Source: a virus (Duplodnaviria; Heunggongvirae; Uroviricota; Caudoviricetes). Taken from it: DNA of 14,154 bases. Where the stretch lies: IMG/VR virus record IMGVR_UViG_2695420403_000006, positions 1 through 14,154 of that record; one strand, 5' to 3'. Under the pieces are notes generated by a model that did not search any database, had not been told where the DNA came from, and saw only the letters and a list, made by a program, of their open reading frames with translations. Below are positions 1 to 14,154 of the stretch, one piece after another. Each line of letters starts with the position of its first letter. Position 1 is the stretch's first letter. The position numbers and the translations under genes were made by a program.

Positions 1-747
1 CTGAACGATCTGCATCGCGCAGCAGTAGCATCTGGTGCAAATGCCAGAACCAAGGAGCCAGGAAAGTTTCTTTCCAGCCAACAAACTGTTGAGCTTGTTC
101 ATGAATTGACCAACACCCAGAATTTGGGTGTTGACCCGGTGAGTGTGATTCATGGGGGAAATGAAAGGGGAACGTATGTCTGCAAGGAACTGGTGTATGC
201 CTATGCAATGTGGATCAGCCCGTCATTCCATCTGAAGGTGATCCGTACTTTCGACATGGTAACCAGCGCACCGGAAAAATTATCCGGGCAGGCTGCTGAC
301 AAGATGCAGGCTGGTGTGATTCTGCTGGACTTTATGCGCAGGGAGTTAAACCTGTCTAACTCATCAGTGCTTGGTGCCTGTCAGAAACTCCAGGAGGCTG
401 TTGGCTTACCGAATCTGGCACCGCGCTATGCCATTGATGCTCCTGCTGACGCGCCTGATGGCTCAAGTCGCCCCACGCTGTCGCTGAGTGCACTGCTGAA
501 ACAGTATGGTATCCGCCTTACGGCTAATCAGGCATATCACCAGATGGTGAAGCTGGGGATCGTCGAGCAGCGCGAACGATACAGCCGTACCGCGATTAAC
601 AACATCAAAAAATTCTGGTCGCTGACAGCGAAAGGCTGCATGTTCGGCAAGAACATCACCAGTCCCGCAAATCCGCGCGAGACGCAGCCGCATTTCTTCG
701 AATCCCGATTCCCTGAGCTGTTAAAGCTGCTCGATACCGTTCATTGA
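1..747 (+). CDS. KilA-N domain phage protein (Roi/antirepressor-like), 5'-partial
   Basis: Reading frame is open from base 1 in frame with the ATG at 106, so the true start probably lies upstream of the window. N-terminal region carries the KilA-N-like signature (...RGTYVCKELVYAYAMWISPSFHLKVIRTFD...). Stop TGA at 745-747. Confidence 0.6.
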   Translation: MNDLHRAAVASGANARTKEPGKFLSSQQTVELVHELTNTQNLGVDPVSVIHGGNERGTYVCKELVYAYAMWISPSFHLKVIRTFDMVTSAPEKLSGQAADKMQAGVILLDFMRRELNLSNSSVLGACQKLQEAVGLPNLAPRYAIDAPADAPDGSSRPTLSLSALLKQYGIRLTANQAYHQMVKLGIVEQRERYSRTAINNIKKFWSLTAKGCMFGKNITSPANPRETQPHFFESRFPELLKLLDTVH

Positions 748-748
748 G

Positions 749-1744
749 GTGACCGTGAGAGCGCTACTGACCCCTGAAATTGCCCCGCGTATGGGGATCG
801 TATTGTTCAGGCCAGGTTCAGAGCTGATGCCCCTGTTTATGCAGGGGCGTGTCCTGCTGGAGCCTGAGCCGGAACGTTATTCATCTTTCGCCAGTGGTGC
901 TGTTCCGGCGGCATCACAACCGCTGGCGGATGATCCTGCCGTTCGGGCCGTGTTCCGCAATGAGGCAGTGATCCGTCGTGCTGGTGGCGTGGAATGTCTT
1001 GAAAGCTGGTTACTTCGTGAAAAAGGCTGCCAGTGGCCTCATTCCGACTGGCACAGCGAGAACATGACAACAATGCGACACGCGCCGGGCGCAATCCGTC
1101 TGTGCTGGCACTGCGATAACCAGCTGCGCGATCAGTTCACGGAACGGCTGGAATCAATGGCAACGGATAACTGTGCCCGCTGGGTGTTGTCTGTTGTGCG
1201 TCGGGATCTCGGTTTTGATGACAGTCACGTTGTGACAATGCCGGAACTGTGCTGGTGGCTGGTTCGTAATGACCTAGCGGATGCCTTACCGGAAAGTGCA
1301 GCCCGTAAGGCACTGAGATTACCGAAGCCTGTTGTGCCGTCTGTCACCCGGGAAAGTGACCTTGTGCCTTCGGTTCCTGCCACCAGCATCATCCAGGATA
1401 AGGCGAAAAAGGTGCTGGCGCTGAAAGTGGATCCGGAGTCGCCGGAGTCTTTTATGTTACGCCCAAAACGTCGCCGCTGGGTTAATGAAAAGTACACACG
1501 CTGGGTTAAGACACAGCCGTGTGCATGTTGTGGAAAGCCTGCTGATGATCCCCACCACCTGATAGGCCACGGTCAGGGGGGAATGGGTACAAAAGCGCAT
1601 GACCTCTTTGTGTTGCCTTTGTGCAGAAAGCATCACGACGAGCTGCATGCGGATACCGTGGCATTTGAAGAGAAGTATGGCTCCCAGCTGGAGCTGATAT
1701 TTCGTTTTATCGATCGCGCGCTGGCGATTGGTGTGTTGACCTGA
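749..1744 (+). CDS. DUF968-family phage protein (YdfU-like) with C-terminal Cys/His-rich HNH-like motif
   Basis: 331-aa ORF starting at GTG 749 (or in-frame GTG 755, preceded by GAGG at 746-749), one base after the upstream stop. C-terminus CACCGKPADDPHHLIGHG...LCRKHHDELH resembles the metal-binding motif of DUF968 nin-region proteins as I remember them. Confidence 0.6.
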   Translation: MTVRALLTPEIAPRMGIVLFRPGSELMPLFMQGRVLLEPEPERYSSFASGAVPAASQPLADDPAVRAVFRNEAVIRRAGGVECLESWLLREKGCQWPHSDWHSENMTTMRHAPGAIRLCWHCDNQLRDQFTERLESMATDNCARWVLSVVRRDLGFDDSHVVTMPELCWWLVRNDLADALPESAARKALRLPKPVVPSVTRESDLVPSVPATSIIQDKAKKVLALKVDPESPESFMLRPKRRRWVNEKYTRWVKTQPCACCGKPADDPHHLIGHGQGGMGTKAHDLFVLPLCRKHHDELHADTVAFEEKYGSQLELIFRFIDRALAIGVLT

Positions 1745-1761
1745 TTTGGTGGAGAAAGTTG

Positions 1762-2124
1762 ATGCGTGATATTCAGATGGTTCTGGAGCGTTGGGGAGCA
1801 TGGGCGGCGAGTGATAGTTCTGGAGTAGACTATTCGCCTATAGCTGCTGGGTTTAAGGGGCTTCTTCCCTACACAAGCAAAACACGTCAGGCTTGTTCAG
1901 ATAGTGATGCATTAATTATTGAAGGTTGTCTTGCTCTTCTTAAAAAGCGAAAACCGTACGAGCATTCTTTGATTGTGGCCCATTACCTGTATGGTATCTC
2001 GAAAAGAAAGCTTGCAAGAGCTCGCAAAAAAGATGAGAAATTGATACGTATAGAGATACAGATGGCTGAAGGGTTTATTGATGGATGCCTTTCAATGCTG
2101 GATGTTAAACTTGAAATGGAGTAG
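1762..2124 (+). CDS. Late-gene antitermination protein Q, small QuuD-like type
   Basis: ATG at 1762 preceded by GGAG at 1751-1754 (the ORF track begins at TTG 1759). The ~120-aa product MRDIQMVLERWGAWAA... matches the N-terminus of DLP12-type small Q antiterminators as I remember them. Position immediately upstream of the lysis region is canonical for Q. Confidence 0.75.
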   Translation: MRDIQMVLERWGAWAASDSSGVDYSPIAAGFKGLLPYTSKTRQACSDSDALIIEGCLALLKKRKPYEHSLIVAHYLYGISKRKLARARKKDEKLIRIEIQMAEGFIDGCLSMLDVKLEME

Positions 2125-2149
2125 AAAAAAGGGCATTTCTGCCCTTTTT
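2125..2149. terminator. Bidirectional rho-independent terminator between convergent Q and the minus-strand cassette
   Basis: AAAAAA-GGGCA-TTTC-TGCCC-TTTTT: 5-bp GC-rich stem (2131-2135/2140-2144), 4-nt loop, A-run upstream and T-run downstream, so it works on both strands. The T-run overlaps the TAA stop (complement of 2148-2150) of the minus-strand membrane-protein gene. Confidence 0.7.
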
Positions 2150-2591
2150 AAATGTGGGGGAGTATCCAGTTTACTTTTCTCCATGTAAAGGCAAAAGTTA
2201 TTACTGAAATGATAAGAAGAGATAAAGATTCGATAATTAAAATAAATTCTATTTTTTCTCCATGTAACAATGTCTTTTCATTGGCAAACATTGCTATCAA
2301 AGCAATAACGCATGCCGTAATTAAAGATGCACCTGCGGTTAATAGATTTACAATAATAACTTGAAGTATGTTGTTGTTTTTTAATGCTTTTATTATTCCA
2401 TTTGAGTTTTCGCTGGCAGCACTAAAAATTGATATTGTGGCTAAAATAAAACCAAATAAAATACCGGATACAGTTGAAATAACCCCGGAGGCTGTAAGTA
2501 TGTCAGCATGCCCCATCTGAGGGATATACCTCAGTAGGAACAAGGTGCAAAAAACACTTACAATCAGGTTTCTTAAGTATTTCAATAACAT
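2148..2591 (-). CDS. Small polytopic inner-membrane protein (about 4 TM helices), RexB-like candidate effector of a two-gene exclusion module
   Basis: 147-aa ORF with four long hydrophobic segments (about residues 9-23, 31-60, 75-103, 114-137). Start lies 3 nt downstream of the stop of the upstream minus-strand gene, with a GAAGG RBS inside that gene's 3' end. AT-rich codon usage distinct from the backbone. Size, topology and the motif LLRYIP resemble lambda RexB as I remember it. Confidence 0.6.
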   Translation of the reverse strand: MLLKYLRNLIVSVFCTLFLLRYIPQMGHADILTASGVISTVSGILFGFILATISIFSAASENSNGIIKALKNNNILQVIIVNLLTAGASLITACVIALIAMFANEKTLLHGEKIEFILIIESLSLLIISVITFAFTWRKVNWILPHI

Positions 2592-2594
2592 ATC

Positions 2595-3536
2595 CTATAC
2601 CTTCTTTTTGCTGATATCGTATTGCTTAAGGTATTCATTGTTATCAATTTTAGCAGAAATCATGGCTTGCAGAACATCACTATCAGTGCCATAACCATTA
2701 ACGGTATATATGTTTTTTTCTGAAATGAGTACCTGATCAAGAAGACTTTGTTCAACGGTATTTTTGGGCTGTGTTACTGCCGCTTTTTTTACAATTCCCG
2801 GCATTTTTTCAAGGAGTTCTTTAATACCATCCTTAACGAGATCTGATAAATAACCTTTGACTTTTACTCTCCCTGATGCACGTCCCCTTAGATTTAACTT
2901 GAGACGTGTTCCACCCAGCCCTACCATCATATTTACCAGTTCCTTAGAAAATGAACTATTTAGCTGGTAATTTGTTGCATCAAAGTTCCTGGGAGCAGCC
3001 AGGACAATATCACAACTTCTCAAAGTACTTCCTGTTTCAAGTAGCTCTTTGACGCTCTCTTTTTTCCAGATGGCTTGGAATGAAAAGTTATTTCCAGGAT
3101 TACCACTCTGGCTGTAAAGCAGATAAGCTAAATCCGATTCTTTCGGCCCAAGATGATTTTGAGTTAATATTAAAATATCACTATCGTAATAATATAAAAA
3201 ATAGGTTCTTTCGACTATGTATTTTTTATCATCTAGTGGTATGTTGTGCTCATTCCAGTGTTCATCACCAATATAAGGAAGGAGATACTCTTCTCGTGAG
3301 CATGACATGTAGCCGAAGAAATATTTAGCTTTTGTATCTTTATTTATAAAAGCTATTTTTAACTTTTTATTTCTATAGATGGTATCAAAATGATTATTCG
3401 TAACGGTTACGCAAGTATTATACAGATTTTCAATTGCTTGCTTAGCAACTGAATGGCTGCGGATAGTCCCAGAACTGCTGGTGTAAAAACCAATTTTAAG
3501 TTTTTTTTGTTTCTTTGATTGCGCAATAGTAGCCAT
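2595..3536 (-). CDS. Soluble 313-aa protein, RexA-like candidate sensor/activator of a two-gene exclusion module
   Basis: ORF with AAGG RBS 6 nt upstream of the ATG (complement of 3534-3536); no hydrophobic segments; AT-rich. N-terminal KIGFY and internal LGPKESDLAYLL are reminiscent of lambda RexA (GFY..., FGPTTSDLTDFL) as I remember it. Operonic with the downstream membrane protein gene. Confidence 0.55.
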   Translation of the reverse strand: MATIAQSKKQKKLKIGFYTSSSGTIRSHSVAKQAIENLYNTCVTVTNNHFDTIYRNKKLKIAFINKDTKAKYFFGYMSCSREEYLLPYIGDEHWNEHNIPLDDKKYIVERTYFLYYYDSDILILTQNHLGPKESDLAYLLYSQSGNPGNNFSFQAIWKKESVKELLETGSTLRSCDIVLAAPRNFDATNYQLNSSFSKELVNMMVGLGGTRLKLNLRGRASGRVKVKGYLSDLVKDGIKELLEKMPGIVKKAAVTQPKNTVEQSLLDQVLISEKNIYTVNGYGTDSDVLQAMISAKIDNNEYLKQYDISKKKV

Positions 3537-3668
3537 GTTAAACCTTAGTATACTAATAATTTCTTATGGGGCTTATTTTTTATATGGCTTTAATTTAGCA
3601 AAAAAAATTACCGCGGTCCGCAAATTTTATCTTAATCTGTTAAGAGTGGTTACTTCGCCACACAGCTT
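3537..3668. promoter_or_regulatory. AT-rich intergenic control region: expected promoter for the minus-strand cassette and expected Q-dependent late promoter/qut for the + strand lysis operon
   Basis: Inferred from gene arrangement. Possible -10-like hexamers are TATACT (3551-3556, either strand) and CTTAAT (3631-3636, +) with a TTACCG -35-like element 17 nt upstream, but none is strong. No transcript data. Confidence 0.3.
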
Positions 3669-3700
3669 AAACCCGCCGTCGAGCGGGTTTTGTCGTTTCT
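3669..3700 (+). terminator. Rho-independent terminator resembling lambda tR' (late-promoter-proximal terminator)
   Basis: ACCCGC (3671-3676), 6-nt loop CGTCGA, GCGGGT (3683-3688), followed by TTTTGTCGTTTCT. Stem sequence and position upstream of the holin match my memory of lambda tR' (ACCCGCCGAAGCGGGTTTTT). Confidence 0.55.
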
Positions 3701-3841
3701 GGGCCTAGGGATTCGTTGGGCCTGGTCTATCCCGCAGTTATCCATTGGCTCGGCTTCTTTGACGTTTCCGCTTCTGATTTGCGGTACATGATGTTCCCTC
3801 AATTTGCACCTCCTGTATTGCGAGGTGAGAGATAACTACAA

Positions 3842-4168
3842 ATGCCTCATAACCCAAATACCTGGCTGGAGTTGGTCCAGAGCTGGTGGCGTGGAGACAC
3901 ACCGCTGGGCGCAGTGATTATGTCGATTGTTATGGCTGGTTTACGTATTGCCTATTTTGGCGGTGGTGGCGGCTGGAAGCGAAAAACACTCGAAATTCTA
4001 CTCTGTGGCGCTCTGACGCTGACTTTTGCATCCGCTCTTGAGTATGTCGGATGGCCTAAATCACTATCTGTTGCCATTGGTGGTGGGGTGGGGCTGATCG
4101 GTGTTGATGCTATTCGTGGGGCTGCAATGAGAGTAATCGGTAATAAGTTTGGTGGCTCTAAGGAGTAA
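3842..4168 (+). CDS. Holin (class I-like, three predicted TM helices, charged C-terminus)
   Basis: 108-aa ORF immediately upstream of the endolysin gene (3-nt gap). Three hydrophobic segments and a basic C-terminal tail (RGAAMRVIGNKFGGSKE). Position is canonical for S. Confidence 0.7.
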   Translation: MPHNPNTWLELVQSWWRGDTPLGAVIMSIVMAGLRIAYFGGGGGWKRKTLEILLCGALTLTFASALEYVGWPKSLSVAIGGGVGLIGVDAIRGAAMRVIGNKFGGSKE

Positions 4169-4171
4169 TTT

Positions 4172-4648
4172 ATGCAGGTACTAAATTCCCAGCGTAAAGC
4201 TTTCCTCGATATGGTGGCATGGTCAGAAGGAACGGATAACGGGCGACAACCGACACGTAATCACGGTTATGATGTTATTGTTGGCGGCGAACTGTTTACT
4301 GATTACTCTGATCACCCTCGCAAACTTGTCACGCTAAACCCCAAACTCAAATCAACAGCCGCCGGACGTTATCAGCTTCTTTCACGCTGGTGGGATGCCT
4401 ACCGTAAGCAGCTTGCTCTGAAAAACTTCTCCCCCAAAAGCCAGGACGCTGTGGCACTGCAACAGATTAAAGAGCGTGGCGCTTTACCGATGATTGATCG
4501 CGGTGATATTCGTCAGGCTATCGACCGTTGCAGCAATATCTGGGCGTCGTTACCCGGTGCAGGTTACGGTCAGTATGAACATAAAATCGGTGATTTGATT
4601 GCCCGGTTTAAAGAGGCTGGTGGGGTGGTAAATGAAGCTGAGCTATAA
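4172..4648 (+). CDS. R: Endolysin, lambda R-type lytic transglycosylase
   Basis: 158-aa product shares long identical runs with lambda R as I remember it (QRKAFLDM.AWSEGTDNGRQ.TRNHGYDVIVGGELFTDYSDHPRKLVTLNPKLKST.AGRYQLLSRWWDAYRKQL...ALQQIKERGALPMIDRGDIRQAIDRCSNIWASLPGAGYGQ), including the catalytic Glu in the AWSEG context. Confidence 0.92.
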   Translation: MQVLNSQRKAFLDMVAWSEGTDNGRQPTRNHGYDVIVGGELFTDYSDHPRKLVTLNPKLKSTAAGRYQLLSRWWDAYRKQLALKNFSPKSQDAVALQQIKERGALPMIDRGDIRQAIDRCSNIWASLPGAGYGQYEHKIGDLIARFKEAGGVVNEAEL

Positions 4649-5024
4649 GCTGGTTATCGCTGGTTTCTTCGTTACTGTCATTGGTTCTTTCATCTGGTCG
4701 GCCAACCACTACTACAGCAAATATCAGTACGAAAAGAAACGTGCTGATGAGGCTGTACGAAATGCTGAATCAGCAACTGCCATTACCAATAACGTCCTGC
4801 AATCAATACAAATCGTAAATACAGTTCTGGAGGCTAACCAGCATGCAAAACAGCAGATCGCACTGGAGTCACAGAGAACCCAGGAAGATATCAAAGTGGC
4901 TGTTGAGAATGATGATTGCGCTTCCCGTCTTGTTCCTGCTCGTGCAACTGAGCGGCTGCGCCGGTACGCGGACAATTTACGTGCCAGTTCCGGCGGTACC
5001 ACTACCGGCGAACCTGACCGCTGA
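4632..5024 (+). CDS. Rz: Rz-type i-spanin (inner-membrane spanin subunit)
   Basis: 130-aa ORF overlapping the endolysin stop. N-terminal TM anchor (LVIAGFFVTVIGSFIW) followed by a charged, coiled-coil-like periplasmic domain. Canonical position after R. Confidence 0.75.
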   Translation: MKLSYKLVIAGFFVTVIGSFIWSANHYYSKYQYEKKRADEAVRNAESATAITNNVLQSIQIVNTVLEANQHAKQQIALESQRTQEDIKVAVENDDCASRLVPARATERLRRYADNLRASSGGTTTGEPDR

Positions 5025-5166
5025 AACCCCACAGCCAGCTATTCCTGATCCGCTGACTTACAGAGATAGTCTGGATTTAAACGTGAGCCTGCTGTCAGTG
5101 CTGGCTGCCTGTAATAGGGATAAGGCTGATATTCGTAAAATTGAAGCAGAGAAGAGTGAGCCATGA
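4909..5166 (+). CDS. Rz1: Rz1-type o-spanin (outer-membrane lipoprotein), overlapping the 3' end of Rz in the +1 frame
   Basis: Start chosen at the ATG-ATG pair at 4909 within the track ORF 4843..5166. Product begins MMIALPVLFLLVQLSG-C with a lipobox (LSGC) and a Pro-rich mature region. It extends 142 nt beyond the Rz stop, i.e. overlapped rather than fully embedded. Confidence 0.7.
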   Translation: MMIALPVLFLLVQLSGCAGTRTIYVPVPAVPLPANLTAETPQPAIPDPLTYRDSLDLNVSLLSVLAACNRDKADIRKIEAEKSEP

Positions 5167-5360
5167 AGCAGTAAAGTGGAAAGACCGCAGCAAGAAGTGC
5201 CTGTTCAGCATTAATGAAGATGCCTCAAATACCTAAAATAGCGAGTAGCCAGATGCACGTCAACTACGAGTGTGTGGCCAGCATAACGTTGTATAAACTA
5301 AGTGATAGCAGAGTTCAATATACGTATACTGAGAGAACTATTTCTATTTGAGAACTGAAA

Positions 5361-5954
5361 ATGACGGACTATACTTTTTTTTACTGGATAGAGATGCTTC
5401 TTAAAGAAGGCAATGTTTTATTTATTGTTCTTGCTTGTTTGATTGTCTTTTTTACTTTAAAAAAAGAAATAATAATGGTTTTAGGTCGTCTTAATACAGT
5501 TAAGCTAGGTGACTATGAGATTAAATTTAAAAAAGAAATGTTTGAAATAGAATCTAAAAGTATAGAGGTTATTAAAAATTTACCTGGAACAAATCTTGTC
5601 CTGCCGACACAACTCATTGAGAATTTCAATATTTTTGAGAGTCTTGCTAGTACTCAGCCTAATGTTGCTGTACTTTCAGCTTGGCGCGAATTGGAGTTAA
5701 CCGCTATAACGCTTGCATCTAAAAAGGGGATTGAGATCAACGGGACATCTTTAGGGCGGGCTTCAGGTATCGCTGCCTTGAAAAATGTCCAATCTGCAAA
5801 CAAAATTTCTAGTGACATTGTTAAGCTTTATGAAAAAACAGGAGAGTCTATTAAGCCTATATCCCAAGGAAAGCTCTTATGTACTCAGGAAGATGCTTTG
5901 GCATTCTGTAAGAATGCAAAAAGACTTAGCAATTATTTAACATCCATATTTTAG
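5361..5954 (+). CDS. Hypothetical membrane-anchored cargo protein (N-terminal TM helix plus about 150-aa soluble domain), function unknown
   Basis: 197-aa ORF in a strongly AT-rich island at the bor-equivalent position between spanins and packaging genes. Hydrophobic segment VLFIVLACLIVFFTL near the N-terminus. Weak RBS; start could alternatively be the in-frame ATG at 5394. Confidence 0.6.
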   Translation: MTDYTFFYWIEMLLKEGNVLFIVLACLIVFFTLKKEIIMVLGRLNTVKLGDYEIKFKKEMFEIESKSIEVIKNLPGTNLVLPTQLIENFNIFESLASTQPNVAVLSAWRELELTAITLASKKGIEINGTSLGRASGIAALKNVQSANKISSDIVKLYEKTGESIKPISQGKLLCTQEDALAFCKNAKRLSNYLTSIF

Positions 5955-5996
5955 TATGTATCCATAGAGCATCCATTATTATTGGAGTAGTCGTTA

Positions 5997-6023
5997 CAGC
6001 AGGCATTCACTGAGTGCCTGCTG
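5997..6023. other. Perfect 9-bp inverted repeat/hairpin between convergent ORFs (possible U-tract-less terminator or protein-binding palindrome)
   Basis: CAGCAGGCA (5997-6005), 9-nt loop TTCACTGAG, TGCCTGCTG (6015-6023). No T-run on either side. Confidence 0.4.
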
Positions 6024-6030
6024 CTGAACT

Positions 6031-6243
6031 CTAATAGCAAGATGGAGAATCTGCATTAAATTTTTGAGAGAGATTACTTATTTCATTCACTCCCTTATGA
6101 TTAAGTAATCGCCTAATATTTTCTGGAGCCTTGAATATAAATGGGCCTTTTAGATCCTCGATGATTCCTCCTGCGACGCAGATCAAATGCTTGAAATCAA
6201 CATCTTCAATTGTGGGCTTGGAGTCCAGATTATCGCTTGTCAT
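6031..6243 (-). CDS. Small hypothetical protein (70 aa), AT-rich cargo ORF
   Basis: Minus-strand ORF with a plausible RBS (AAAGGA, about 9 nt upstream of the ATG on the minus strand) and the same AT-rich composition as the neighbouring 197-aa gene. No recognisable family. Confidence 0.35.
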   Translation of the reverse strand: MTSDNLDSKPTIEDVDFKHLICVAGGIIEDLKGPFIFKAPENIRRLLNHKGVNEISNLSQKFNADSPSCY

Positions 6244-6307
6244 TTAAAAACATCCTTTCTTGCCATTAGCAGCATTGAGCATGTTATGGAATCTGTAATT
6301 TAGGATG

Positions 6308-6330
6308 CTGGTACTACCAGTACTTTTTTT
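6308..6330 (+). terminator. Weak candidate intrinsic terminator upstream of the HNH gene
   Basis: Palindrome CTGGTA-C-TACCAG (6308-6320) followed by a 7-T run (6324-6330). The stem is short, so the call is tentative. Confidence 0.3.
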
Positions 6331-6372
6331 GTTTCATTTTGTGAATCACCTCATTTACGAGGGGAGCCTATC

Positions 6373-6723
6373 ATGCCACCACGAACACCAAAAGCCTGCC
6401 GTGTTCGCGGCTGCCGCTCTACAACCACAGACCCTTCAGGCTACTGCGAAAGCCACAAAAGCGAAGGCTGGAAGCAATACAAACCTGGACAATCCCGTCA
6501 TCAGCGCGGCTACGGTTCGAAGTGGGACAGTATCCGCGCGCGTGTCCTGAAGCGTGACAAAGGCCTGTGTCAGTTATGTCTGCGTGCTGGTGTGGTGCGT
6601 GAGGCGAAGACCGTTGACCACATCATCCCTAAATCGCATGGCGGCACTGATGTCGACAGTAATCTGCAGAGTTTGTGCTGGCCGTGTCATAAGGCGAAGA
6701 CGGCCCGTGAACGGCTGAAGTAA
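6373..6723 (+). CDS. HNH endonuclease (terminase-associated, HK97 gp74-like)
   Basis: 116-aa product with Cys-rich N-terminus (CRVRGCRSTTTDPSGYCESH) and HNH core (DHIIPKSHGGTDVDSNLQSLCWPCH). Strong RBS GAGGGGAG upstream. Location immediately before terS is typical of HK97-type packaging modules. Confidence 0.85.
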   Translation: MPPRTPKACRVRGCRSTTTDPSGYCESHKSEGWKQYKPGQSRHQRGYGSKWDSIRARVLKRDKGLCQLCLRAGVVREAKTVDHIIPKSHGGTDVDSNLQSLCWPCHKAKTARERLK

Positions 6724-6749
6724 GAACCAGTTCCCACTGCCAGAGGGGA

Positions 6750-6809
6750 GGGGCGGGTCAAATCCCTGTGACCTGACGTCTTCCGGACTGCCCGCCCCAT
6801 CGTTTTTTT
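6750..6809 (+). other. GC-rich long hairpin plus T7 run in the HNH-terS intergenic region; candidate terminator and/or part of the cos/packaging-site region
   Basis: GGGGCGGG (6750-6757) pairs with CCCGCCCC (6791-6798) around a 33-nt loop containing the GACGTC palindrome, followed by ATCG-TTTTTTT (6803-6809). In HK97-type phages cos lies between the HNH gene and terS. Confidence 0.4.
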
Positions 6810-6848
6810 ATACCCGCGAAAAATGAAATTTAACCAGGAGAGCCGCAT

Positions 6849-7343
6849 ATGGCTGGAACGGCGGGGCGTTCCGGGCGTCGCCCCAAGCCAACGGCGCGCA
6901 AGGCGCTGGCCGGAAACCCCGGCAAGCGAGCCCTGAATAAAGATGAACCTGTTTTTACGCCCATCAAAGGTGTTGACCCACCGGAGTGGTTCGCTGAAGA
7001 AGATCTCCCTCTCGCCACGATCATGTGGCAACTGACAACCAAAGAACTCTGCGGTCAGGGCCTGCTGTGCGTGACTGACCTGGCGGTACTTGAGCGGTGG
7101 TGCGTGGCCTATGAGTTCTGGCGACGTGCCGTGAAAAATATTGCCAGACAGGGCAACACCATCACCGGTGCAATGGGCGGTATGGTCAAAAATCCGGAGC
7201 TGACCGCCAAAAAAGAACAGGAGTCCGAGATGAGCAGTACGGGGGCAATGCTCGGACTCGACCCCAGCAGCCGCCAGCGTCTGATTGGCCTGGCGGGGCA
7301 GAAGAAAGCCACTAACCCGTTTCTGAAAATCATCGAATCATGA
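6849..7343 (+). CDS. terS: Terminase small subunit (P27 / HK97 gp1 family)
   Basis: 164-aa product with basic N-terminus ([34 protein letters not shown]...) characteristic of P27-family small terminases. RBS AGGAGA 7 nt upstream. Stop overlaps the terL start (ATGA at 7340-7343). Confidence 0.85.
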
Positions 7344-9073
7344 GCCGGAAATCTTACCCCAACGTAAATGCTGCCAATCAGTATGCCCGTGATGTCGTGC
7401 GCGGAAAGATTGTGGCCTGCCAGTTTGTGATTCAGGCCTGCCAGCGCCATCTTGATGACCTGATGGAGGAAAAAAGTAAGTCGTTTCGTTACCGCTTCGA
7501 CAAGGACCTGGCTGAACGGGCCGCCAAATTTATTCAGCTGTTGCCGCACACTAAGGGGGAGTGGGCATTCAAGAGGATGCCCATCACGCTGGAGCCGTGG
7601 CAGCTCTTTGTGATCTGCTGCGCGTTTGGCTGGGTCAATAAAGGCTCCCGGCTGCGCCGCTTCCGTGAGGTGTATACCGAAATCCCCCGTAAGAACGGCA
7701 AATCGGCAATCTCTGCCGGTGTCGCCCTGTATTGTTTTGCCTGTGATAACGAATTCGGCGCGGAAGTGTATTCCGGTGCCACGACGGAGAAACAGGCATG
7801 GGAAGTCTTTCGTCCGGCAAGACTGATGTGTAAACGCACACCCATGCTGACGGAAGCGTTCGGGATTGAGGTTAACGCCTCAAACATGAACCGTCCGGAG
7901 GATGGTGCGCGTTTTGAACCGCTGATCGGTAACCCCGGTGATGGTTCATCACCCCACTGTGCGGTGGTGGATGAATATCACGAGCACGCCACAGATGCGC
8001 TTTACACCACGATGCTTACCGGGATGGGGGCGCGACGTCAGCCACTGATGTGGGCTATCACTACCGCCGGGTACAACATTGAGGGGCCGTGCTACGACAA
8101 ACGGCGGGAAGTCATCGAGATGCTCAACGGCTCGGTGCCTAACGATGAACTGTTCGGGATCATCTATACCGTTGATGAAGGTGACGACTGGACCGACCCG
8201 CAGGTGCTGGAAAAAGCTAACCCAAATATTGGCGTGTCGGTTTATCGCGAATTTTTGTTAAGTCAGCAGCAGCGTGCGAAAAATAACGCCCGTCTGGCAA
8301 ACGTCTTTAAAACAAAACACCTCAATATCTGGGTGTCGGCGCGTTCGGCGTATTTCAACCTGGTGAGCTGGCAGAGCTGCGAGGATAAATCACTGACCCT
8401 TGAGCAGTTCGAGGGGCAGCCGTGCATTCTGGCCTTTGACCTGGCGCGTAAGCTGGATATGAACAGCATGGCGCGACTTTATACCCGCGAGATTGACGGT
8501 AAAACGCATTACTACAGTGTGGCCCCGCGTTTCTGGGTACCGTATGACACGGTGTACAGCGTCGAGAAAAATGAAGATCGACGGACAGCCGAACGCTTTC
8601 AGAAATGGGTGGAAATGGGCGTTCTGACCGTTACCGATGGTGCGGAGGTGGATTATCGCTACATCCTCGAGGAGGCCAAAGCGGCGAACAAAATCAGCCC
8701 GGTCAGTGAGTCACCCATCGACCCCTTCGGGGCGACCGGGTTGTCACATGACCTTGCTGATGAAGACCTGAACCCCATCACTATCATTCAGAACTACACC
8801 AACATGTCCGACCCGATGAAAGAGCTGGAAGCGGCAATTGAATCGGGGCGCTTTCATCATGATGGCAATCCCATCATGACCTGGTGTATCGGCAACGTGG
8901 TCGGCAAAACCATTCCGGGTAACGATGATGTGGTGAAGCCCGTCAAAGAGCAGGCGGAAAACAAAATCGATGGTGCAGTTGCGCTGATTATGGCGGTTGG
9001 CAGAGCCATGCTGTACGAGAAAGGAGACACGTTGTCTGACCACATTGAGTCCTATGGGATCCGCTCGCTTTAA
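7340..9073 (+). CDS. terL: Terminase large subunit (HK97 gp2-like ATPase/nuclease)
   Basis: 577-aa product with Walker A-like motif ([14 protein letters not shown]) and a downstream acidic motif (AVVDEYHEH). Size and position are typical. Confidence 0.93.
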
Positions 9074-9084
9074 CTGAGGTAATT

Positions 9085-9267
9085 ATGATCATGCTGATTC
9101 TCGCGCCTCTGGTGGGCGTGCTGGGGGCGCTTTTGCTGGCGTATGGTGCCTGGCTGATTTATCCCCCGGCGGGGTTTGTTGTTGCCGGGGCGTTGTGCCT
9201 GTTCTGGTCGTGGCTGGTGGCGCGATATCTTGACCGTACACAGTCGTCTGTCGGCGGAGGTAAATAG
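9085..9267 (+). CDS. Small membrane protein (two predicted TM helices) between terL and portal
   Basis: 60-aa ORF with GAGG RBS (9077-9080) and two hydrophobic segments. Its TAG stop overlaps the GTG start of the portal gene (TAGTG at 9265-9269), suggesting translational coupling. Confidence 0.5.
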
Positions 9268-10508
9268 TGTTCTTTTCGGGATTATTTCAACGAAAAAGTG
9301 ACGCACCGGTGACCACGCCAGCAGAGCTGGCGGAGGCTATCGGGTTGTCCTACGACACCTATACCGGAAAGCAGATCAGCAGCCAGCGGGCCATGCGACT
9401 GACGGCGGTTTTTTCCTGTGTCAGGGTGCTGGCGGAGTCGGTCGGGATGTTGCCCTGCAACCTGTATCACCTGAACGGCAGCCTGAAGCAGAGAGCCACC
9501 GGCGAGCGTCTGCATAAGCTGATCTCCACGCATCCCAATGGCTATATGACGCCGCAGGAGTTCTGGGAGCTGGTGGTCACCTGTCTGTGCCTGCGGGGAA
9601 ACTTTTACGCCTACAAAGTGAAAGCATTTGGCGAAGTGGCTGAACTGCTGCCCGTCGATCCCGGCTGTGTGGTACCGAAGCTTAACAGTAGCTGGGAGCC
9701 GATCTATCAGGTCACATTCCCGGATGGCTCCACGGATGTACTGAGCCAGGAGGATATCTGGCATGTGCGCACGCTGACGCTGGACGGACTGGTGGGGCTG
9801 AATCCCATCGCCTATGCCCGCGAGGCAATATCGCTGGCAGCTGCGACCGAAGAGCACGGGGCCAGACTGTTCAGCAATGGCGCGGTGACGTCGGGTGTGT
9901 TGCGTACAGAGCAGACGCTGTCAGATCAGGCTTATGAGCGCCTGAAGAAAGATTTTGAGGAGCGTCACACCGGGCTTGGCAATGCTCACCGCCCGATGAT
10001 CCTTGAGATGGGGCTGGACTGGAAGTCGATGGCGCTGAACGCCGAGGACAGCCAGTTCCTGGAAACCCGCAAGTTTCAGCTTGAAGAAATCTGTCGTCTG
10101 TTCCGGGTGCCGTTGCACATGGTGCAGAACACCGATCGCGCCACCTTCAACAATATCGAAGAGCTGGGGCTGGGATTTATCAACTATTCACTGGTGCCGT
10201 ATCTGACCCGCATCGAACAGCGGATCAACACCGGACTGGTACGAAAAAGTAAGCAGGGCGTTTATTACGCCAAATTTAACGCCGGGGCGTTACTGCGCGG
10301 GGATATGAAGTCCCGTTTTGAAGCCTACGCCACCGGGATCAACTGGGGAATTTACTCTCCCAATGACTGCCGCGACCTGGAAGATATGAATCCGCGTCCC
10401 GGTGGTGATGTCTATCTCACACCGATGAACATGACCACGAAACCCTCCGATGGCAGTAAAGCCGGTAAGCAGAAGGATAACGCCAATGCAGACGAAACAA
10501 CGTCTTGA
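9267..10508 (+). CDS. Portal protein (HK97 family)
   Basis: 413-aa product starting at GTG 9267 with GGAGG RBS at 9255-9259. Size, position after terL and internal motifs (...FRVPLHMVQNTDRATFNNIEE...) fit HK97-type portals. Confidence 0.92.
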   Translation: MFFSGLFQRKSDAPVTTPAELAEAIGLSYDTYTGKQISSQRAMRLTAVFSCVRVLAESVGMLPCNLYHLNGSLKQRATGERLHKLISTHPNGYMTPQEFWELVVTCLCLRGNFYAYKVKAFGEVAELLPVDPGCVVPKLNSSWEPIYQVTFPDGSTDVLSQEDIWHVRTLTLDGLVGLNPIAYAREAISLAAATEEHGARLFSNGAVTSGVLRTEQTLSDQAYERLKKDFEERHTGLGNAHRPMILEMGLDWKSMALNAEDSQFLETRKFQLEEICRLFRVPLHMVQNTDRATFNNIEELGLGFINYSLVPYLTRIEQRINTGLVRKSKQGVYYAKFNAGALLRGDMKSRFEAYATGINWGIYSPNDCRDLEDMNPRPGGDVYLTPMNMTTKPSDGSKAGKQKDNANADETTS

Positions 10509-11136
10509 TGTACCGCTGAGTCTGAAATCTGTCAGTGACTCCGGTGAGTTTGAAGGGTATGGCTCCGTCTTTGGTGTAAAGGACAGCCACGATGATGTGG
10601 TGATGTCCGGGGCATTTGCTGCTTCCCTGCGGGCGTGGAGTGACAGAAAATCGTTACCTGCGCTGCTCTGGCAGCACCGCATGGATGAACCCATCGGTGT
10701 TTACACCGAAATGAAGGAAGACGATGTCGGGCTTTACGTCAGGGGACGGTTGCTTATTGATGATGATCCCCTCGCAAAACGCGCACATGCACACATGAAG
10801 GCCGGTTCGTTAACCGGCCTTTCTATTGGGTACGTCCTGAAAGACTGGGAATACGACCGGAGCAAAGAAGCCTTTCTGCTGAAAGAAATCGACCTCTGGG
10901 AAGTCAGCCTGGTGACGTTCCCGTCTAACGACGAGGCGCGGATCAGCGACGTCAAGAACGCACTGGCCCGCGGGGAAATCCCCGAACAGAAAAAAATCGA
11001 AAGAGTCCTGCGTGATGTCGGACTCTCCCGTACCCAGGCCAAAGCATTCATGGCCGGGGGCTATGGCGCACTGTCCCTGCGCGACGCTGAGGATGTGGGC
11101 TCTGCACTGAATGCACTGAAAAATCTGAACTTCTAA
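10486..11136 (+). CDS. Prohead maturation protease (HK97 gp4 / S78 family)
   Basis: Start chosen at ATG 10486 (GAAGGA RBS 8 nt upstream, 23-nt overlap with the portal gene) rather than the track start 10450, which lacks an RBS. Product (...GYGSVFGVKDSHDDVV...LWQH...) fits the HK97 protease family. Confidence 0.88.
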   Translation: MQTKQRLDVPLSLKSVSDSGEFEGYGSVFGVKDSHDDVVMSGAFAASLRAWSDRKSLPALLWQHRMDEPIGVYTEMKEDDVGLYVRGRLLIDDDPLAKRAHAHMKAGSLTGLSIGYVLKDWEYDRSKEAFLLKEIDLWEVSLVTFPSNDEARISDVKNALARGEIPEQKKIERVLRDVGLSRTQAKAFMAGGYGALSLRDAEDVGSALNALKNLNF

Positions 11137-11150
11137 TCAGGAGAAATACG

Positions 11151-12356
11151 ATGGCGGTTGATATTAAAGATGTCGAACAGGTCGCGCAGGAGCTGCAGCA
11201 GAAGTTTGACGACTTCAAAGCAAAGAACGACAAGCGCGTGGATGCGATTGAGCAGGAAAAAGGCAAGCTTGCCGGGCAGGTGGAAACCCTGAACGGGAAA
11301 CTCAGCGAGCTGGAAAATCTCAAAAGCGACCTTGAAAAAGAGCTGCTTGAGCTGAAACGTCCGGCAGGTGGAGCGCAAAATAAACTGGCCACCGAGCATA
11401 AAGAGGCGTTTGTGGGCTTCCTGCGTAAAGGCCGTGAAGACGGTCTGCGCGATCTGGAGCGTAAGGCATTGCAGGTGGGTACCGATGAAGACGGTGGCTA
11501 CGCCGTGCCGGAAGAACTGGATCGCAACATTCTTAACCTGCTGAAAGATGAAGTGGTGATGCGTCAGGAAGCCACGGTGATCACCGTTGGCGGTTCCGAC
11601 TACAAAAAACTGGTGAATCTGGGCGGTACGGCTTCCGGATGGGTGGGGGAAACGGATACGCGATCCCAGACTGCCACCTCCAGACTGGAGCTGATTGAAC
11701 CTCTCATGGGGGAAATCTACGGCAACCCGCAGGCTACCCAGAAAATGCTGGACGATGCCTTCTTCAACGTGGAGGCCTGGATCAACAGCGAGCTGGCAAC
11801 CGAATTTGCCGAACAGGAAGAAATTGCCTTTACCACCGGCGATGGCACCAAGAAGCCGAAAGGGTTCCTGGCGTATGAATCCACTGATGAAACCGACAAG
11901 GTCCGGGCGTTCGGCAAACTTCAGCATATTGTATCCGGCGAAGCGACCGCGGTGACCGCAGACGCCATTATCAAACTGATTTACACGCTGCGTAAGGCAC
12001 ACCGCACTGGCGCGAAGTTCATGATGAACAACAACAGCCTGTTTGCCATCCGTCTGCTGAAAGACACCGAGGGTAACTATCTGTGGCGTCCGGGGCTGGA
12101 ACTGGGGCAGCCGTCCTCTCTGGCGGGTTACGGTATCGCTGAAAACGAACAGATGCCGGATATCGCCGCGGATGCGAAAGCCATTGCATTTGGTAACTTC
12201 AAACGGGGTTACACCATCGTTGACCGTATCGGCACCCGCATTCTGCGTGACCCGTACACCAATAAACCGTTTGTCGGTTTTTATACCACCAAGCGCACCG
12301 GCGGGATGCTGGTCGATTCGCAGGCCATCAAACTGCTGAAGATTGCAGCGGCGTAA
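11151..12356 (+). CDS. Major capsid protein, HK97 fold with N-terminal delta (scaffold-like coiled-coil) domain
   Basis: 401-aa product. The N-terminal ~100 aa are highly charged and coiled-coil-like (delta domain). Strong RBS AGGAG 7 nt upstream. Position after the protease is canonical. Confidence 0.93.
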   Translation: MAVDIKDVEQVAQELQQKFDDFKAKNDKRVDAIEQEKGKLAGQVETLNGKLSELENLKSDLEKELLELKRPAGGAQNKLATEHKEAFVGFLRKGREDGLRDLERKALQVGTDEDGGYAVPEELDRNILNLLKDEVVMRQEATVITVGGSDYKKLVNLGGTASGWVGETDTRSQTATSRLELIEPLMGEIYGNPQATQKMLDDAFFNVEAWINSELATEFAEQEEIAFTTGDGTKKPKGFLAYESTDETDKVRAFGKLQHIVSGEATAVTADAIIKLIYTLRKAHRTGAKFMMNNNSLFAIRLLKDTEGNYLWRPGLELGQPSSLAGYGIAENEQMPDIAADAKAIAFGNFKRGYTIVDRIGTRILRDPYTNKPFVGFYTTKRTGGMLVDSQAIKLLKIAAA

Positions 12357-12405
12357 TCACTCAGGGGCGCGGAACCGCGCCTCCTGTTCTGACGGGTGAA
12401 GAATC

Positions 12406-12606
12406 ATGATCCTGAAACAAGATCTGAAATGGTCACCGGACGGTATGCGTGTTGAGGTCATTCGGGCCGGTGAGTATGACGACGGGGCGCTTCCTGCCCG
12501 GGTGCAGGAGATTGCACTTCAGGCCGGGTTAGCAGAGCGCGGAACCAGTGCAAAAAGCAGTAAAGCGACAAAAGAGAAAAAAGCCACGACCAGTAAAGAG
12601 GGCTGA
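12406..12606 (+). CDS. Small hypothetical head-module protein with Lys/Ser/Thr-rich C-terminal tail
   Basis: 66-aa ORF directly after the capsid gene, in the codon usage of the backbone. C-terminus SAKSSKATKEKKATTSKEG is low-complexity and basic. Confidence 0.45.
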   Translation: MILKQDLKWSPDGMRVEVIRAGEYDDGALPARVQEIALQAGLAERGTSAKSSKATKEKKATTSKEG

Positions 12607-12608
12607 GT

Positions 12609-12932
12609 ATGCTTCTGACAATGGAAGAGATTAAAGCCCAACTCCGGCTGGATGAGGATTTCGATGCTGATGACCGCCATCTGCAACTGCTGGCCTGTGC
12701 GGCGCAAAAGCGGACGGAAACGTATCTGAACCGGAAGCTCTATGCACCGGATGAAACCATTCCGGACAGCGACCCGGACGGACTACACCTGCCGGATGAT
12801 ATTCGTCTGGGGATGCTGATGCTTATCAGCCATTTTTACGAAAACCGCTCGTCGGTTACGGAAGTGGAGAAACTCGACATGCCGCAGAGTTTTGGCTGGC
12901 TTGTTGGCCCGTACAGGTACTTTCCGCAATGA
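12609..12932 (+). CDS. Head-tail connector protein (HK97 gp6-like)
   Basis: 107-aa product with the N-terminal signature EEIKAQLRLDEDFDADD...LL..AAQ...E.YLNR typical of gp6-like connector proteins. RBS AAGAGGG upstream. Stop overlaps the next gene's start (ATGA). Confidence 0.72.
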   Translation: MLLTMEEIKAQLRLDEDFDADDRHLQLLACAAQKRTETYLNRKLYAPDETIPDSDPDGLHLPDDIRLGMLMLISHFYENRSSVTEVEKLDMPQSFGWLVGPYRYFPQ

Positions 12933-13339
12933 AAATTCGTCAGGCGCAGACCAGCGCAACCTACATTCTGCCGGACCCCGGCGAACTGAATAAACGCGTC
13001 CTGATCCGCCAGCGGGTGGATATGCCCGCGGATAACTTTGGCGTGGAGCCTCAATACCCGGTTGCGTTCCGGGCATGGGCGAAGGTTGTCCAGACCAGTG
13101 CCACCACCTGGCAGGAAACCGCGCAGACCGGAGACGCCATCACCCATTACATCACCATTCGCTACCGCCGGGGGATCACCGCTGATTATGAGGTGGTCTG
13201 CGGTGACAGTGTGTACCGGGTGAAACGTCAGCGCGATCTGAACGGTGCGCGGCGCTTTCTGCTGCTGGAGTGTACGGAGCTGGGCGAATTTACGCAGAGT
13301 CACGGAGGCAGCAATGGCGACTCCCTTTTTTCACGTTGA
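12929..13339 (+). CDS. Head closure / head-tail adaptor protein (Phage_H_T_join-like)
   Basis: 136-aa ORF in canonical position after the connector gene. Overlaps the next gene by 26 nt. Confidence 0.65.
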   Translation: MKIRQAQTSATYILPDPGELNKRVLIRQRVDMPADNFGVEPQYPVAFRAWAKVVQTSATTWQETAQTGDAITHYITIRYRRGITADYEVVCGDSVYRVKRQRDLNGARRFLLLECTELGEFTQSHGGSNGDSLFSR

Positions 13340-13820
13340 TGTTCAGCAGCCCGCGGAGATGCGCTTTAACCGCGCCCGTGTCCGGCGGGCGTTTGTCACG
13401 ATTGGGCAGCGTCATATGCGTGATGCTCGTCGGCTGGTGATGCGCCGTGCGCGGTCGGCACCGGGTGAAAACCCCGGTTATCAGACCGGACGCCTGGCTC
13501 GTTCGATTGGTTACATGGTGCCGGGAGCCAGTAAAAAGCGAGCCGGTTTTATGACACGCATTGCCCCTAACCAGCGCAACGGGAAGGGGAACCGGATGAT
13601 CTCTGGTGACTTCTATCCGGCGTTTCTGTTTTTTGGTGTCCGGGGAGGAGCAAAACGTCGTCGTAGTCATCATCGTGGTGCATCCGGTGGCAGCGGCTGG
13701 CGGCTGGCTCCACGTAATAACTTTATGGTGGAAACTCTTGAAAAGAACCGCAGCTGGACACGCTATTTTCTGGCGCGGGAATTACGTAAATCACTGAAGC
13801 CGGAGCGACGACGCAGATGA
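13314..13820 (+). CDS. HK97 gp10-family neck/tail-completion protein
   Basis: Start chosen at ATG 13314 (GGAGG RBS at 13304-13308, 5-nt spacer) rather than track start 13245. Product MATPFFHVDVQQ... has the arginine-rich composition of gp10-like proteins. Confidence 0.7.
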   Translation: MATPFFHVDVQQPAEMRFNRARVRRAFVTIGQRHMRDARRLVMRRARSAPGENPGYQTGRLARSIGYMVPGASKKRAGFMTRIAPNQRNGKGNRMISGDFYPAFLFFGVRGGAKRRRSHHRGASGGSGWRLAPRNNFMVETLEKNRSWTRYFLARELRKSLKPERRRR

Positions 13821-14154
13821 AACTGACGCCTGTTATTGCTGCGCTGCGTGCCCGCTGCCCGTATTTTGAAAACCGGGTGGCAGGCGCGGCACAGTTCAAA
13901 AATCTGCCGGAGGTCGGAAAGCTGAGACTCCCGGCGGCGTATGTGGTACCGGGTGATGACTCTCCGGGAGAAAACAAAAGCCAGACCGACTACTGGCAGG
14001 AGCTGAAAGAGGGCTTCTCCGTGGTTGTCATACTGAGTAACGGGCGTGATGAGCGCGGTCAGTTTGCCTCGTATGATGTGGTGGACGATGTCCGGCAGAT
14101 GCTCTTTAAGGCTCTGCTGGGCTGGAACCCGGAAGCGTGCGGTAACCCGATTAC
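13817..14154 (+). CDS. Phage tail-side structural protein (possibly tail terminator / DUF3168-like), 3'-partial
   Basis: ATG at 13817 overlaps the upstream stop (ATGA). Frame stays open to the window end (MKLTPVIAALRARCPYFENRVAGAAQFKNLPEVGKL...), which is why it is absent from the ORF track. Confidence 0.5.
   Translation, partial: MKLTPVIAALRARCPYFENRVAGAAQFKNLPEVGKLRLPAAYVVPGDDSPGENKSQTDYWQELKEGFSVVVILSNGRDERGQFASYDVVDDVRQMLFKALLGWNPEACGNPI

Follow-up and report, generated by a model that had tools for sequence, protein, structure and literature searches.

A remote relative of lambda RexA and its predicted four-helix membrane partner, a candidate Rex-type operon in a lambdoid prophage

The window analysed here is a whole stretch of 14,154 nucleotides (nt) of tailed-phage DNA (IMG/VR record IMGVR_UViG_2695420403_000006, positions 1 to 14,154). 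Two adjacent genes on its minus strand, called A and B in this study, were compared with the rexA and rexB genes of phage lambda. RexAB is the oldest known abortive-infection system. To our knowledge, the trigger of lambda Rex and the way in which RexA activates RexB are still unsolved after 70 years, and we know of only about six Rex-like systems that have been studied. The features of the pair are given below with their lengths in amino acids (aa).

2595..3536, minus strand: gene A, ATG start, 313 aa, isoelectric point (pI) 9.25, soluble, DUF6731 family
3543..3546, minus strand: AAGG Shine-Dalgarno sequence (ribosome-binding site) of A, 6 nt 5' of the ATG
3483..3497, minus strand: motif KIGFY of A, aa 14-18, in the first beta-strand (model strand 8-18), aligning to RexA K2-N-G-F-Y6
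3117..3152, minus strand: motif LGPKESDLAYLL of A, aa 129-140, aligning to RexA FGPTTSDLTDFL at 108-119
2148..2591, minus strand: gene B, 147 aa, four hydrophobic helices, phrog_8552
2349..2513, minus strand: segment of B, aa 27-81 (second transmembrane helix and central loop), the sole part with specific RexB profile similarity

Motifs, family and fold of gene A

A first-pass annotation made from the letters of the window had noted that KIGFY and the central motif of A echo two segments of RexA. Both motifs are present in A, and the RexA segments given in that annotation are exact: in the lambda genome (NC_001416) RexA begins with MKNGFYATY, with NGFY at residues 3-6, and carries FGPTTSDLTDFL at 108-119. 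In the structural model of A described below, LGPKESDLAYLL corresponds to a loop and the start of a helix (model 132-143) after the last strand of the N-terminal sheet. Taken pairwise, the resemblance did not exceed chance, as BLASTP of A against lambda RexA aligned exactly the GP..SDL segment with a non-significant E value of 0.25. In the context of the two families it did, with conserved columns and the same register in three profile-profile alignments. Residues G15/F16, N126-H127-L128-G129-P130-K131, D134 and L139 were nearly or fully invariant in 27 A homologues (35-87% identity), and the equivalent F, G108-P109 and L114 were invariant or nearly so among 22 RexA homologues. The two motifs thus mark the signature positions of DUF6731 and RexA alike.

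The first-pass annotation had placed A in an otherwise unknown family, which had to be corrected. A matched the Pfam family DUF6731 (PF20505; 41.4 bits against a gathering cut-off of 27, E = 1.7e-10, residues 34-260) and phrog_7651, both being families of unknown function. DUF6731 was also matched by 76 of the 84 relatives of A, and the identical E. coli gene bears the RefSeq label 'DUF6731 family protein'. Nothing was matched by A in NCBIfam or in PADLOC (2023 version of the models), none of the 84 relatives matched the RexA models at E ≤ 1, and a phmmer search of A against the PDB sequences returned noise only (mercuric reductase, ankyrin). The RexA and RexB models of Pfam and PADLOC scored lambda's own proteins at 202-360 bits (RexA at 323 bits on Pfam PF15969 and 360 bits on the PADLOC model); the A-B pair is thus invisible to Rex models that exist and that recognise the lambda proteins strongly. 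A is a remote relative of RexA, outside the RexA family in the narrow sense. An 87%-identical homologue of A is labelled 'portal (connector) protein' in ON470608.1 (30253-31191) and ON470622.1 (15461-16399), which is almost certainly an annotation error.

The structure of A was predicted with AlphaFold2 from the 27-sequence alignment (the start codon was omitted, so that model numbering is one below that of the protein), with a mean pLDDT (predicted local distance difference test) of 81.5 and a pTM (predicted template modelling score) of 0.75. In a Foldseek search of 350,542 PDB chains, the top matches of the model were two RexA chains (E = 2.8e-7 and 6.5e-6), followed by E. coli RdgC (2.6e-4), and nothing else fell below 1e-3. 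RexA was the first-ranked fold by two methods, with a large gap. RdgC is a structural relative of RexA, according to the RexA crystallography paper (PMC11077077); it ranked below RexA in the structural comparison, and A had no RdgC match in Pfam. Superposition of a model on lambda RexA had been proposed as a check of the first-pass annotation, and a confident assignment of the fold to another family as its refutation. The best solved structure was RexA by a wide margin, then RdgC, and no assignment to another family emerged.

The N-terminal part of the model comprised a multi-strand sheet and helices (strands 8-124, helices 29-41 and 132-143), the middle unit four strands and three helices (162-278), and the C-terminal end two helices (284-305). 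This order of elements fits published RexA, and A shares its split globular domain interrupted by an inserted dimerisation domain. Full-length TM-scores (template modelling scores) between A and RexA were low (0.34-0.37), and the case for similarity is therefore weaker in the middle domain than in the globular domain; in the model, such low scores would follow from a different hinge angle. Sequence identity within the structural alignments was 9-13%.

A profile search with the 27-sequence alignment against 1.84 billion representatives (cut-off E ≤ 0.001) found 233 clusters, mostly of 280-310-aa proteins. Grouped at 50% identity, the family amounts to at least 233 clusters, whose members come from Pseudomonas, Vibrio, Aeromonas, Pseudoalteromonas and Enterobacterales or are metagenome-derived proteins. 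When a DUF6731 alignment of 177 sequences was compared with RexA (29 sequences) using hhalign, we obtained E = 1.2e-6, a probability of 90.8% and 255 collinear columns (query 13-308 on RexA 1-271). This run and two shallower ones, whose values are given with the contrary evidence below, shared one register, with KIGFY on KNGFY and LGPKESDLAYLL on FGPTTSDLTDFL. The real RexA profile scored 50.1, compared to 14.6 ± 2.7 (maximum 24.1) for 40 column-shuffled RexA profiles and 16.6 for the reversed profile (z ~13). Likewise, the wide DUF6731 hidden Markov model (HMM) scored real RexA proteins at up to 19.9 bits (P = 2e-8), compared to a maximum of 5.8 bits in 609 shuffled or reversed RexA sequences. 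The HMM-HMM comparison, another of the checks proposed, thus aligned the A family to RexA well above the shuffles, and the deep alignment together with the fold match of the model supported the first of the two readings offered in the first-pass annotation, namely a new branch among Rex-like sensors rather than an unrelated sensor beside a Rex-like effector. Taking sequence and fold in combination, we conclude that DUF6731 and RexA are remote homologues; considered by itself, the sequence signal varies with alignment depth.

The membrane partner and the conservation of the pair

Gene B starts 3 nt after the stop of A. Its hydropathy peaks (8-24, 37-53, 83-99 and 116-132) are at positions equivalent to those of lambda RexB (9-25, 50-66, 84-100 and 117-133), and its AlphaFold2 model consisted of four long helices forming a four-helix bundle (pLDDT 85). 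B has the size of approximately 145 aa (147 vs. 144 aa in RexB), the four transmembrane helices and the conserved central loop of the RexB type, and N61, G64, A68, L69, K70 and N72 of this loop were invariant among close homologues.

BLASTP of B against lambda RexB gave E = 0.012 in the N-terminal third. When the four RexB blocks were permuted, the profile of the partner family (B and its counterparts beside A homologues) always picked the same block, namely the second transmembrane helix and the central loop. The reversed RexB profile scored 12.2 against the partner profile, compared to 26 for the real one. The similarity between B and RexB is therefore more than generic hydrophobicity. The partner HMM scored RexB sequences at 4.8 bits, below shuffles (6.9), and among nine partner proteins, one (L012) matched Pfam RexB (E = 0.13, 13.2 bits vs. 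a cut-off of 27). Because the HMM scores are near or below those of shuffles, homology between B and RexB is not claimed here; the sequence similarity is suggestive only. A search of BFVD with the B model returned weak matches only, and lambda RexB was not among the 50 matches listed. The second-best match came from mycobacteriophage Sbash, an uncharacterised protein of 165 aa (probability 0.99, E = 0.09) that may be gp31 of this phage.

A hydrophobic protein of 118-153 aa was encoded directly 3' of the A homologue in all of the 12 other distinct loci, which span A identities from 99% down to approximately 20%. Where the spacing was checked, the two genes overlapped or lay within 22 nt. The pair thus shows the operon arrangement of the RexAB type, a soluble RexA-like gene followed by a small four-transmembrane gene. 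Loci with the pair include the following.

Two Xenorhabdus genomes
E. coli prophages with a 44%-identical A, in the slot between Q and the holin as in the window
A Vibrio chromosomal island
Five metagenomic contigs, at approximately 20% identity
Pseudomonas phage AUS531phi (MN585195), 2596-4782
Vibrio phage 10N.286.54.F4_PE001 (PQ189356), 1389-2896

Across loci, the pair was located after cI, after an integrase, between Q and the lysis genes, and in non-phage islands. In AUS531phi the gene order is Cro/CI-family repressor, A, B, the same as lambda cI-rexA-rexB. The A homologue of this phage (298 aa, DUF6731) scored 320 bits on the wide family HMM and its partner 76 bits on the partner HMM, and the partner family is therefore as old as the A family. 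As annotated, the AUS531phi partner has 118 aa and three hydrophobic peaks only; it may have been called too short at the N-terminus. In the Vibrio phage, a 351-aa DUF6731 homologue and a 150-aa four-transmembrane partner directly follow an integrase-like gene. This 14.6 kb element is classified in Vinavirales (Tectiliviricetes), so the A-B module is not confined to tailed phages.

A 39%-identical pair (341 aa and 150 aa) was found in a non-phage chromosomal context in contigs of Vibrio cholerae and V. fluvialis (L007 and L008 respectively, 4001-5478). In L008 the pair is approximately 3 kb from ToxS-family (PF17323) and Trans_reg_C-family genes (possibly toxRS) and adjoins an HTH_7 recombinase-like gene. 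No attC-like direct repeats were found flanking the locus in L007. Among 5426 complete E. coli genomes, 25 carried the pair, and there the two genes are labelled 'DUF6731 family protein' and 'hypothetical protein'; it was also found at 99% identity in Citrobacter braakii ATCC 51113. The scan of a genome collection, in which the peptide patterns were specific to the enterobacterial subfamily, gave 3 loci only.

Setting of the pair in the window

The whole window represents a lambdoid late region, from a prophage of the phage cdtI type. Its features are listed in order, with GC standing for guanine plus cytosine content.

106-747: KilA-N protein
749-1744, plus strand: DUF968/HNH protein of 331 aa (DUF968 272 bits, weak HNHc_6 nuclease match), directly 5' of Q
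1759-2124: antiterminator Q (Pfam 1.5e-52)
2148-3536, minus strand: genes A and B, the pair under study
3842-4168: lambda-type holin (Pfam)
4172-4648: endolysin, named from its position and its annotated cdtI counterpart, without a Pfam match
4632-5166: overlapping open reading frames at the Rz/Rz1 spanin position, names taken from neighbouring records
5361-6243: second low-GC insert
5361-5954, plus strand: 197-aa protein with a hydrophobic N-terminus, phrog_30030, no Pfam match
6031-6243, minus strand: 70-aa protein, convergent to the 197-aa gene, phrog_22590
From 6373: HNH gene, terminase, then portal, protease and capsid genes (the last three by position and size)

Positions 2100-3691 were 99.7% identical to phage cdtI (NC_009514), in which the counterparts of the pair are orf54 and orf53, at the same place after Q and both labelled 'hypothetical protein'. 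In other E. coli prophages this slot holds the 44%-identical pair, and the order KilA-N, DUF968, Q was also seen in related E. coli prophages (L009-L011). A and B occupy a low-GC island at 2125..3600 (35% GC in A and 33% in B, compared to 51-54% in the holin and terL), which separates Q from the lysis cassette and is oriented antisense to the late operon. Because of its antisense orientation, low GC and separate position, this island is a moron-type insertion.

The stretch 3597-3800 was 86-90% identical to the 3'-end of Q and the region downstream of it in SfII, SfIV, Stx2 phages and PhiR5_1, and it contains a terminator-like hairpin on the plus strand (3669-3690). This similarity suggests that insertion of the A-B moron took place between Q and the late promoter/terminator region, or beside what is left of another Q gene. 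On the minus strand at 3611-3623, approximately 75 nt 5' of A, there is a short GC hairpin with a T-run after it; such a structure could shield the A-B operon from antisense read-through, or it may be nothing. Terminator-like sites in the scan numbered 2, compared to 1.5 expected by chance. The second insert (34-36% GC) is placed between the Rz/Rz1 region and the HNH/terminase genes, and its two genes could be another moron or a defence candidate.

Interpretation and comparison with known systems

The present data show the RexA-type fold of the A model and a remote homology between A and RexA, the membership of A in DUF6731, the conserved operon of A followed by B, and the topology and size of B. 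The A-B pair is placed in the RexAB-like kind because of the fold of A, the operon structure and the topology of B, although the narrow RexA and RexB HMM tests failed; within this kind it is a new member, or one that may already have a published name. Our best explanation, to which we give a probability of roughly 0.62, is that A and B form a two-gene Rex-type abortive-infection or exclusion operon, a low-GC moron situated between Q and the lysis cassette. If A works like lambda RexA, Sbash gp30, Pseudomonas putida RexApp and V. cholerae SclA, it would be the infection sensor, probably a DNA-binding dimer, that senses a product of the infecting phage and then activates B. An oligomer of B would depolarise or permeabilise the inner membrane, and this perturbation would stop the development of the superinfecting phage with its cycle incomplete. 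Tight translational coupling would set the A:B ratio, a quantity that matters for lambda Rex (PMC12894663), and the pair would presumably be expressed from its own promoter in the lysogen. The basic pI of A is compatible with DNA binding and proves nothing. Dimerisation, DNA binding, A-B interaction, channel activity, expression in the lysogen, and defence with its trigger are what we infer for the pair from these analogous systems.

Several results weigh against this explanation. In the window the pair is outside the immunity region, between Q (1759-2124) and the holin (3842-4168) and on the opposite strand to them; in AUS531phi, the related pair is in the immunity region. A scan for the sigma-70 consensus gave 6 sites (6.4 expected by chance), none of them 5' of A, and the literature search found no functional data on DUF6731. 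At E ≤ 1 in Pfam and PADLOC, A did not match RexA and B did not match RexB. The significance of the profile comparison was unstable: hhalign with 27 DUF6731 sequences against 22 RexA sequences gave E = 0.055 and a probability of 1%, and with 84 DUF6731 sequences E = 0.003, a probability of 10% and 220 columns. The residues of A aligned to the DNA-binding residues R219/K221 of RexA were not conserved in the 177-sequence alignment. In the case of B, hhalign of its family against RexB was weak (E = 0.0013-0.0018, probability 15-18%, second transmembrane helix and central loop only), and the RexB HMM scored the best partner barely higher than shuffled sequences (17.2 vs. 13.8 bits).

The unmatched RexA HMMs and the low probabilities of the two shallower profile runs would also be expected if the resemblance between A and RexA were convergent or an artefact of the predicted model, with DUF6731 unrelated to RexA and its function not inferable from Rex; the identity of 9-13% in the structural alignments and the prediction of the structure from 27 sequences agree with this. 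We regard it as very unlikely, given that RexA was the first-ranked fold by two methods with a large gap, that the profile alignment was collinear over the full length, constant in register in three runs and at z ~13 over shuffles, and that the same partner type and gene order recur, in one relative (AUS531phi) adjacent to cI. An improbable alternative is that A is mainly a DNA-binding regulator or recombination-associated protein (RdgC-like, or with a RexB-independent RexA role that biases the lambda switch), serving the prophage life cycle with B as an accessory. RdgC (PDB 2OWL) has the fold class common to RexA and was the second Foldseek family (E = 2.6e-4). However, RexA scored far above RdgC for A, the pair in the window is far from any repressor and antisense within the late region, and the strict co-occurrence with a membrane partner across approximately 20-99% identity argues for joint action. 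RdgC also differs in being a stand-alone chromosomal gene, whereas A is prophage-borne and has a membrane-protein partner.

The location of the pair directly upstream of the holin, endolysin and Rz genes, the small multi-helix membrane protein B and the weak Pfam noise matches of partner proteins, which include a holin-like toxin, could be read as signs of a lysis-related or other membrane function, with B holin-like, antiholin-like or a superinfection-exclusion protein and the RexA likeness of A functionally meaningless. This is highly improbable, as the pair is on the opposite strand with a GC approximately 18 points below that of the lysis genes, elsewhere it stands beside integrases or repressors or in a non-phage context, the window already has a complete lambda-type set of holin, endolysin and spanin, and hhalign of the partner profile against the window holin gave a score of 10.6 with 1 aligned column. 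The logic of the pair could also be reversed, A being a toxic or antiviral effector that B sequesters until infection releases it. In the Rex-like pair of mycobacteriophage Butters (gp30/gp31), the effector role is ascribed to the cytosolic protein, and defence does not require the membrane protein (PMC12894663); no computed result of this work tells whether A or B is the effector, and tight A-B coupling is compatible with the reversed and the Rex-type logic. By contrast, in 4 of the 5 Rex-like systems summarised in that article, and in Sucellos, neither gene is dispensable and the membrane protein acts as effector. The predicted conserved four-helix bundle of B, with its invariant central loop, is as would be expected for the active component, and we find a reversed logic unlikely.

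A Pfam family of unknown function is now linked to the RexA fold, and it is accompanied by a RexB-sized four-transmembrane partner in all of the loci examined. This provides a testable functional annotation for genes labelled 'hypothetical', or 'portal protein' in two phage records, and more natural variants for comparative mechanistic work on Rex-type systems; the 2023 PADLOC models miss the pair. The gain is incremental, because remote RexAB-like pairs (Sucellos and RexABpp) have been recognised and validated likewise and the A-B pair may belong to one of them. It is possible, although we consider it doubtful, that DUF6731 and its four-transmembrane partners are a large, hitherto undescribed branch of the Rex superfamily distinct from lambda RexAB, RexABpp and Sucellos. 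If so, the pair would be a natural E. coli prophage member for studying how a RexA-fold sensor switches on a RexB-type effector.

Lambda RexA/RexB (PF15969/PF15968; PDB 8TWQ) resemble the A-B pair in consisting of a soluble gene of approximately 280-310 aa followed by a four-transmembrane gene of approximately 145 aa, and in being carried on a lambdoid prophage. RexA shares the two-domain fold of A, and the N-terminal GF and the GP..(D/E)L motifs of the two proteins align. By contrast, their identity is 9-13%, A exceeds RexA by 34 residues, the alignment shows no conservation at R219/K221, the RexA and RexB HMMs are unmatched by A and B, and the homology between B and RexB is unproven. Lambda RexAB is placed in the immunity region and co-transcribed with cI, whereas the A-B pair occupies the slot that separates Q from the lysis genes and runs antisense to the late operon. 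Rex-like systems are not always in the immunity region, as in the case of Sbash (PMC6426596).

Two equally remote RexAB-like pairs, Sucellos (bioRxiv 10.1101/2024.07.02.601686) and RexABpp (PMC12894663), have been shown by experiment to defend against phages, and both genes are needed. Sucellos (SclA/SclB) is a cassette of the V. cholerae N16961 superintegron, apparently VCA0367-0368 from a primer name; it is described as having a RexAB-like structure without matching the Rex Pfam domains, SclB is a predicted membrane pore, and the homologues are reported mostly from enterobacterial prophages (bioRxiv 10.1101/2024.07.02.601686). This description would fit the A-B pair, and the A family also has Vibrio members (P0044; PQ189356). 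Sucellos differs in that it lies in an integron cassette and has a promoter of its own. The named cluster members of ten representatives included no protein of V. cholerae N16961. Compared by description only, A-B and Sucellos are probably the same family. RexABpp (PP_5643/PP_5644) of the P. putida prophage P1, for which DNA binding and RexB-dependent toxicity were shown experimentally, is likewise prophage-borne with a four-transmembrane partner (PMC12894663). Substitutions in RexBpp reach residue 181, which makes it longer than the partners of the A family (118-153 aa), and the termini of PP_5643 deduced from published primers (MHRTATFV..., ...VYNKQSRLMV) matched none of the 254 collected proteins.

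The actinobacteriophage pairs Sbash gp30/gp31, CarolAnn gp44/gp43 and Butters gp30/gp31 resemble A-B in combining a soluble with a four-transmembrane protein in a prophage-expressed defence (PMC6426596, PMC7542560). Their soluble partners are larger (337-372 aa) and were reported with a DUF4747 motif, whereas A has no DUF4747 match, and Butters differs in its reversed effector logic. Sbash gp31 is a RexB-like four-transmembrane effector in which the central loop is essential (PMC6426596), and the equivalent loop is the conserved part of B.

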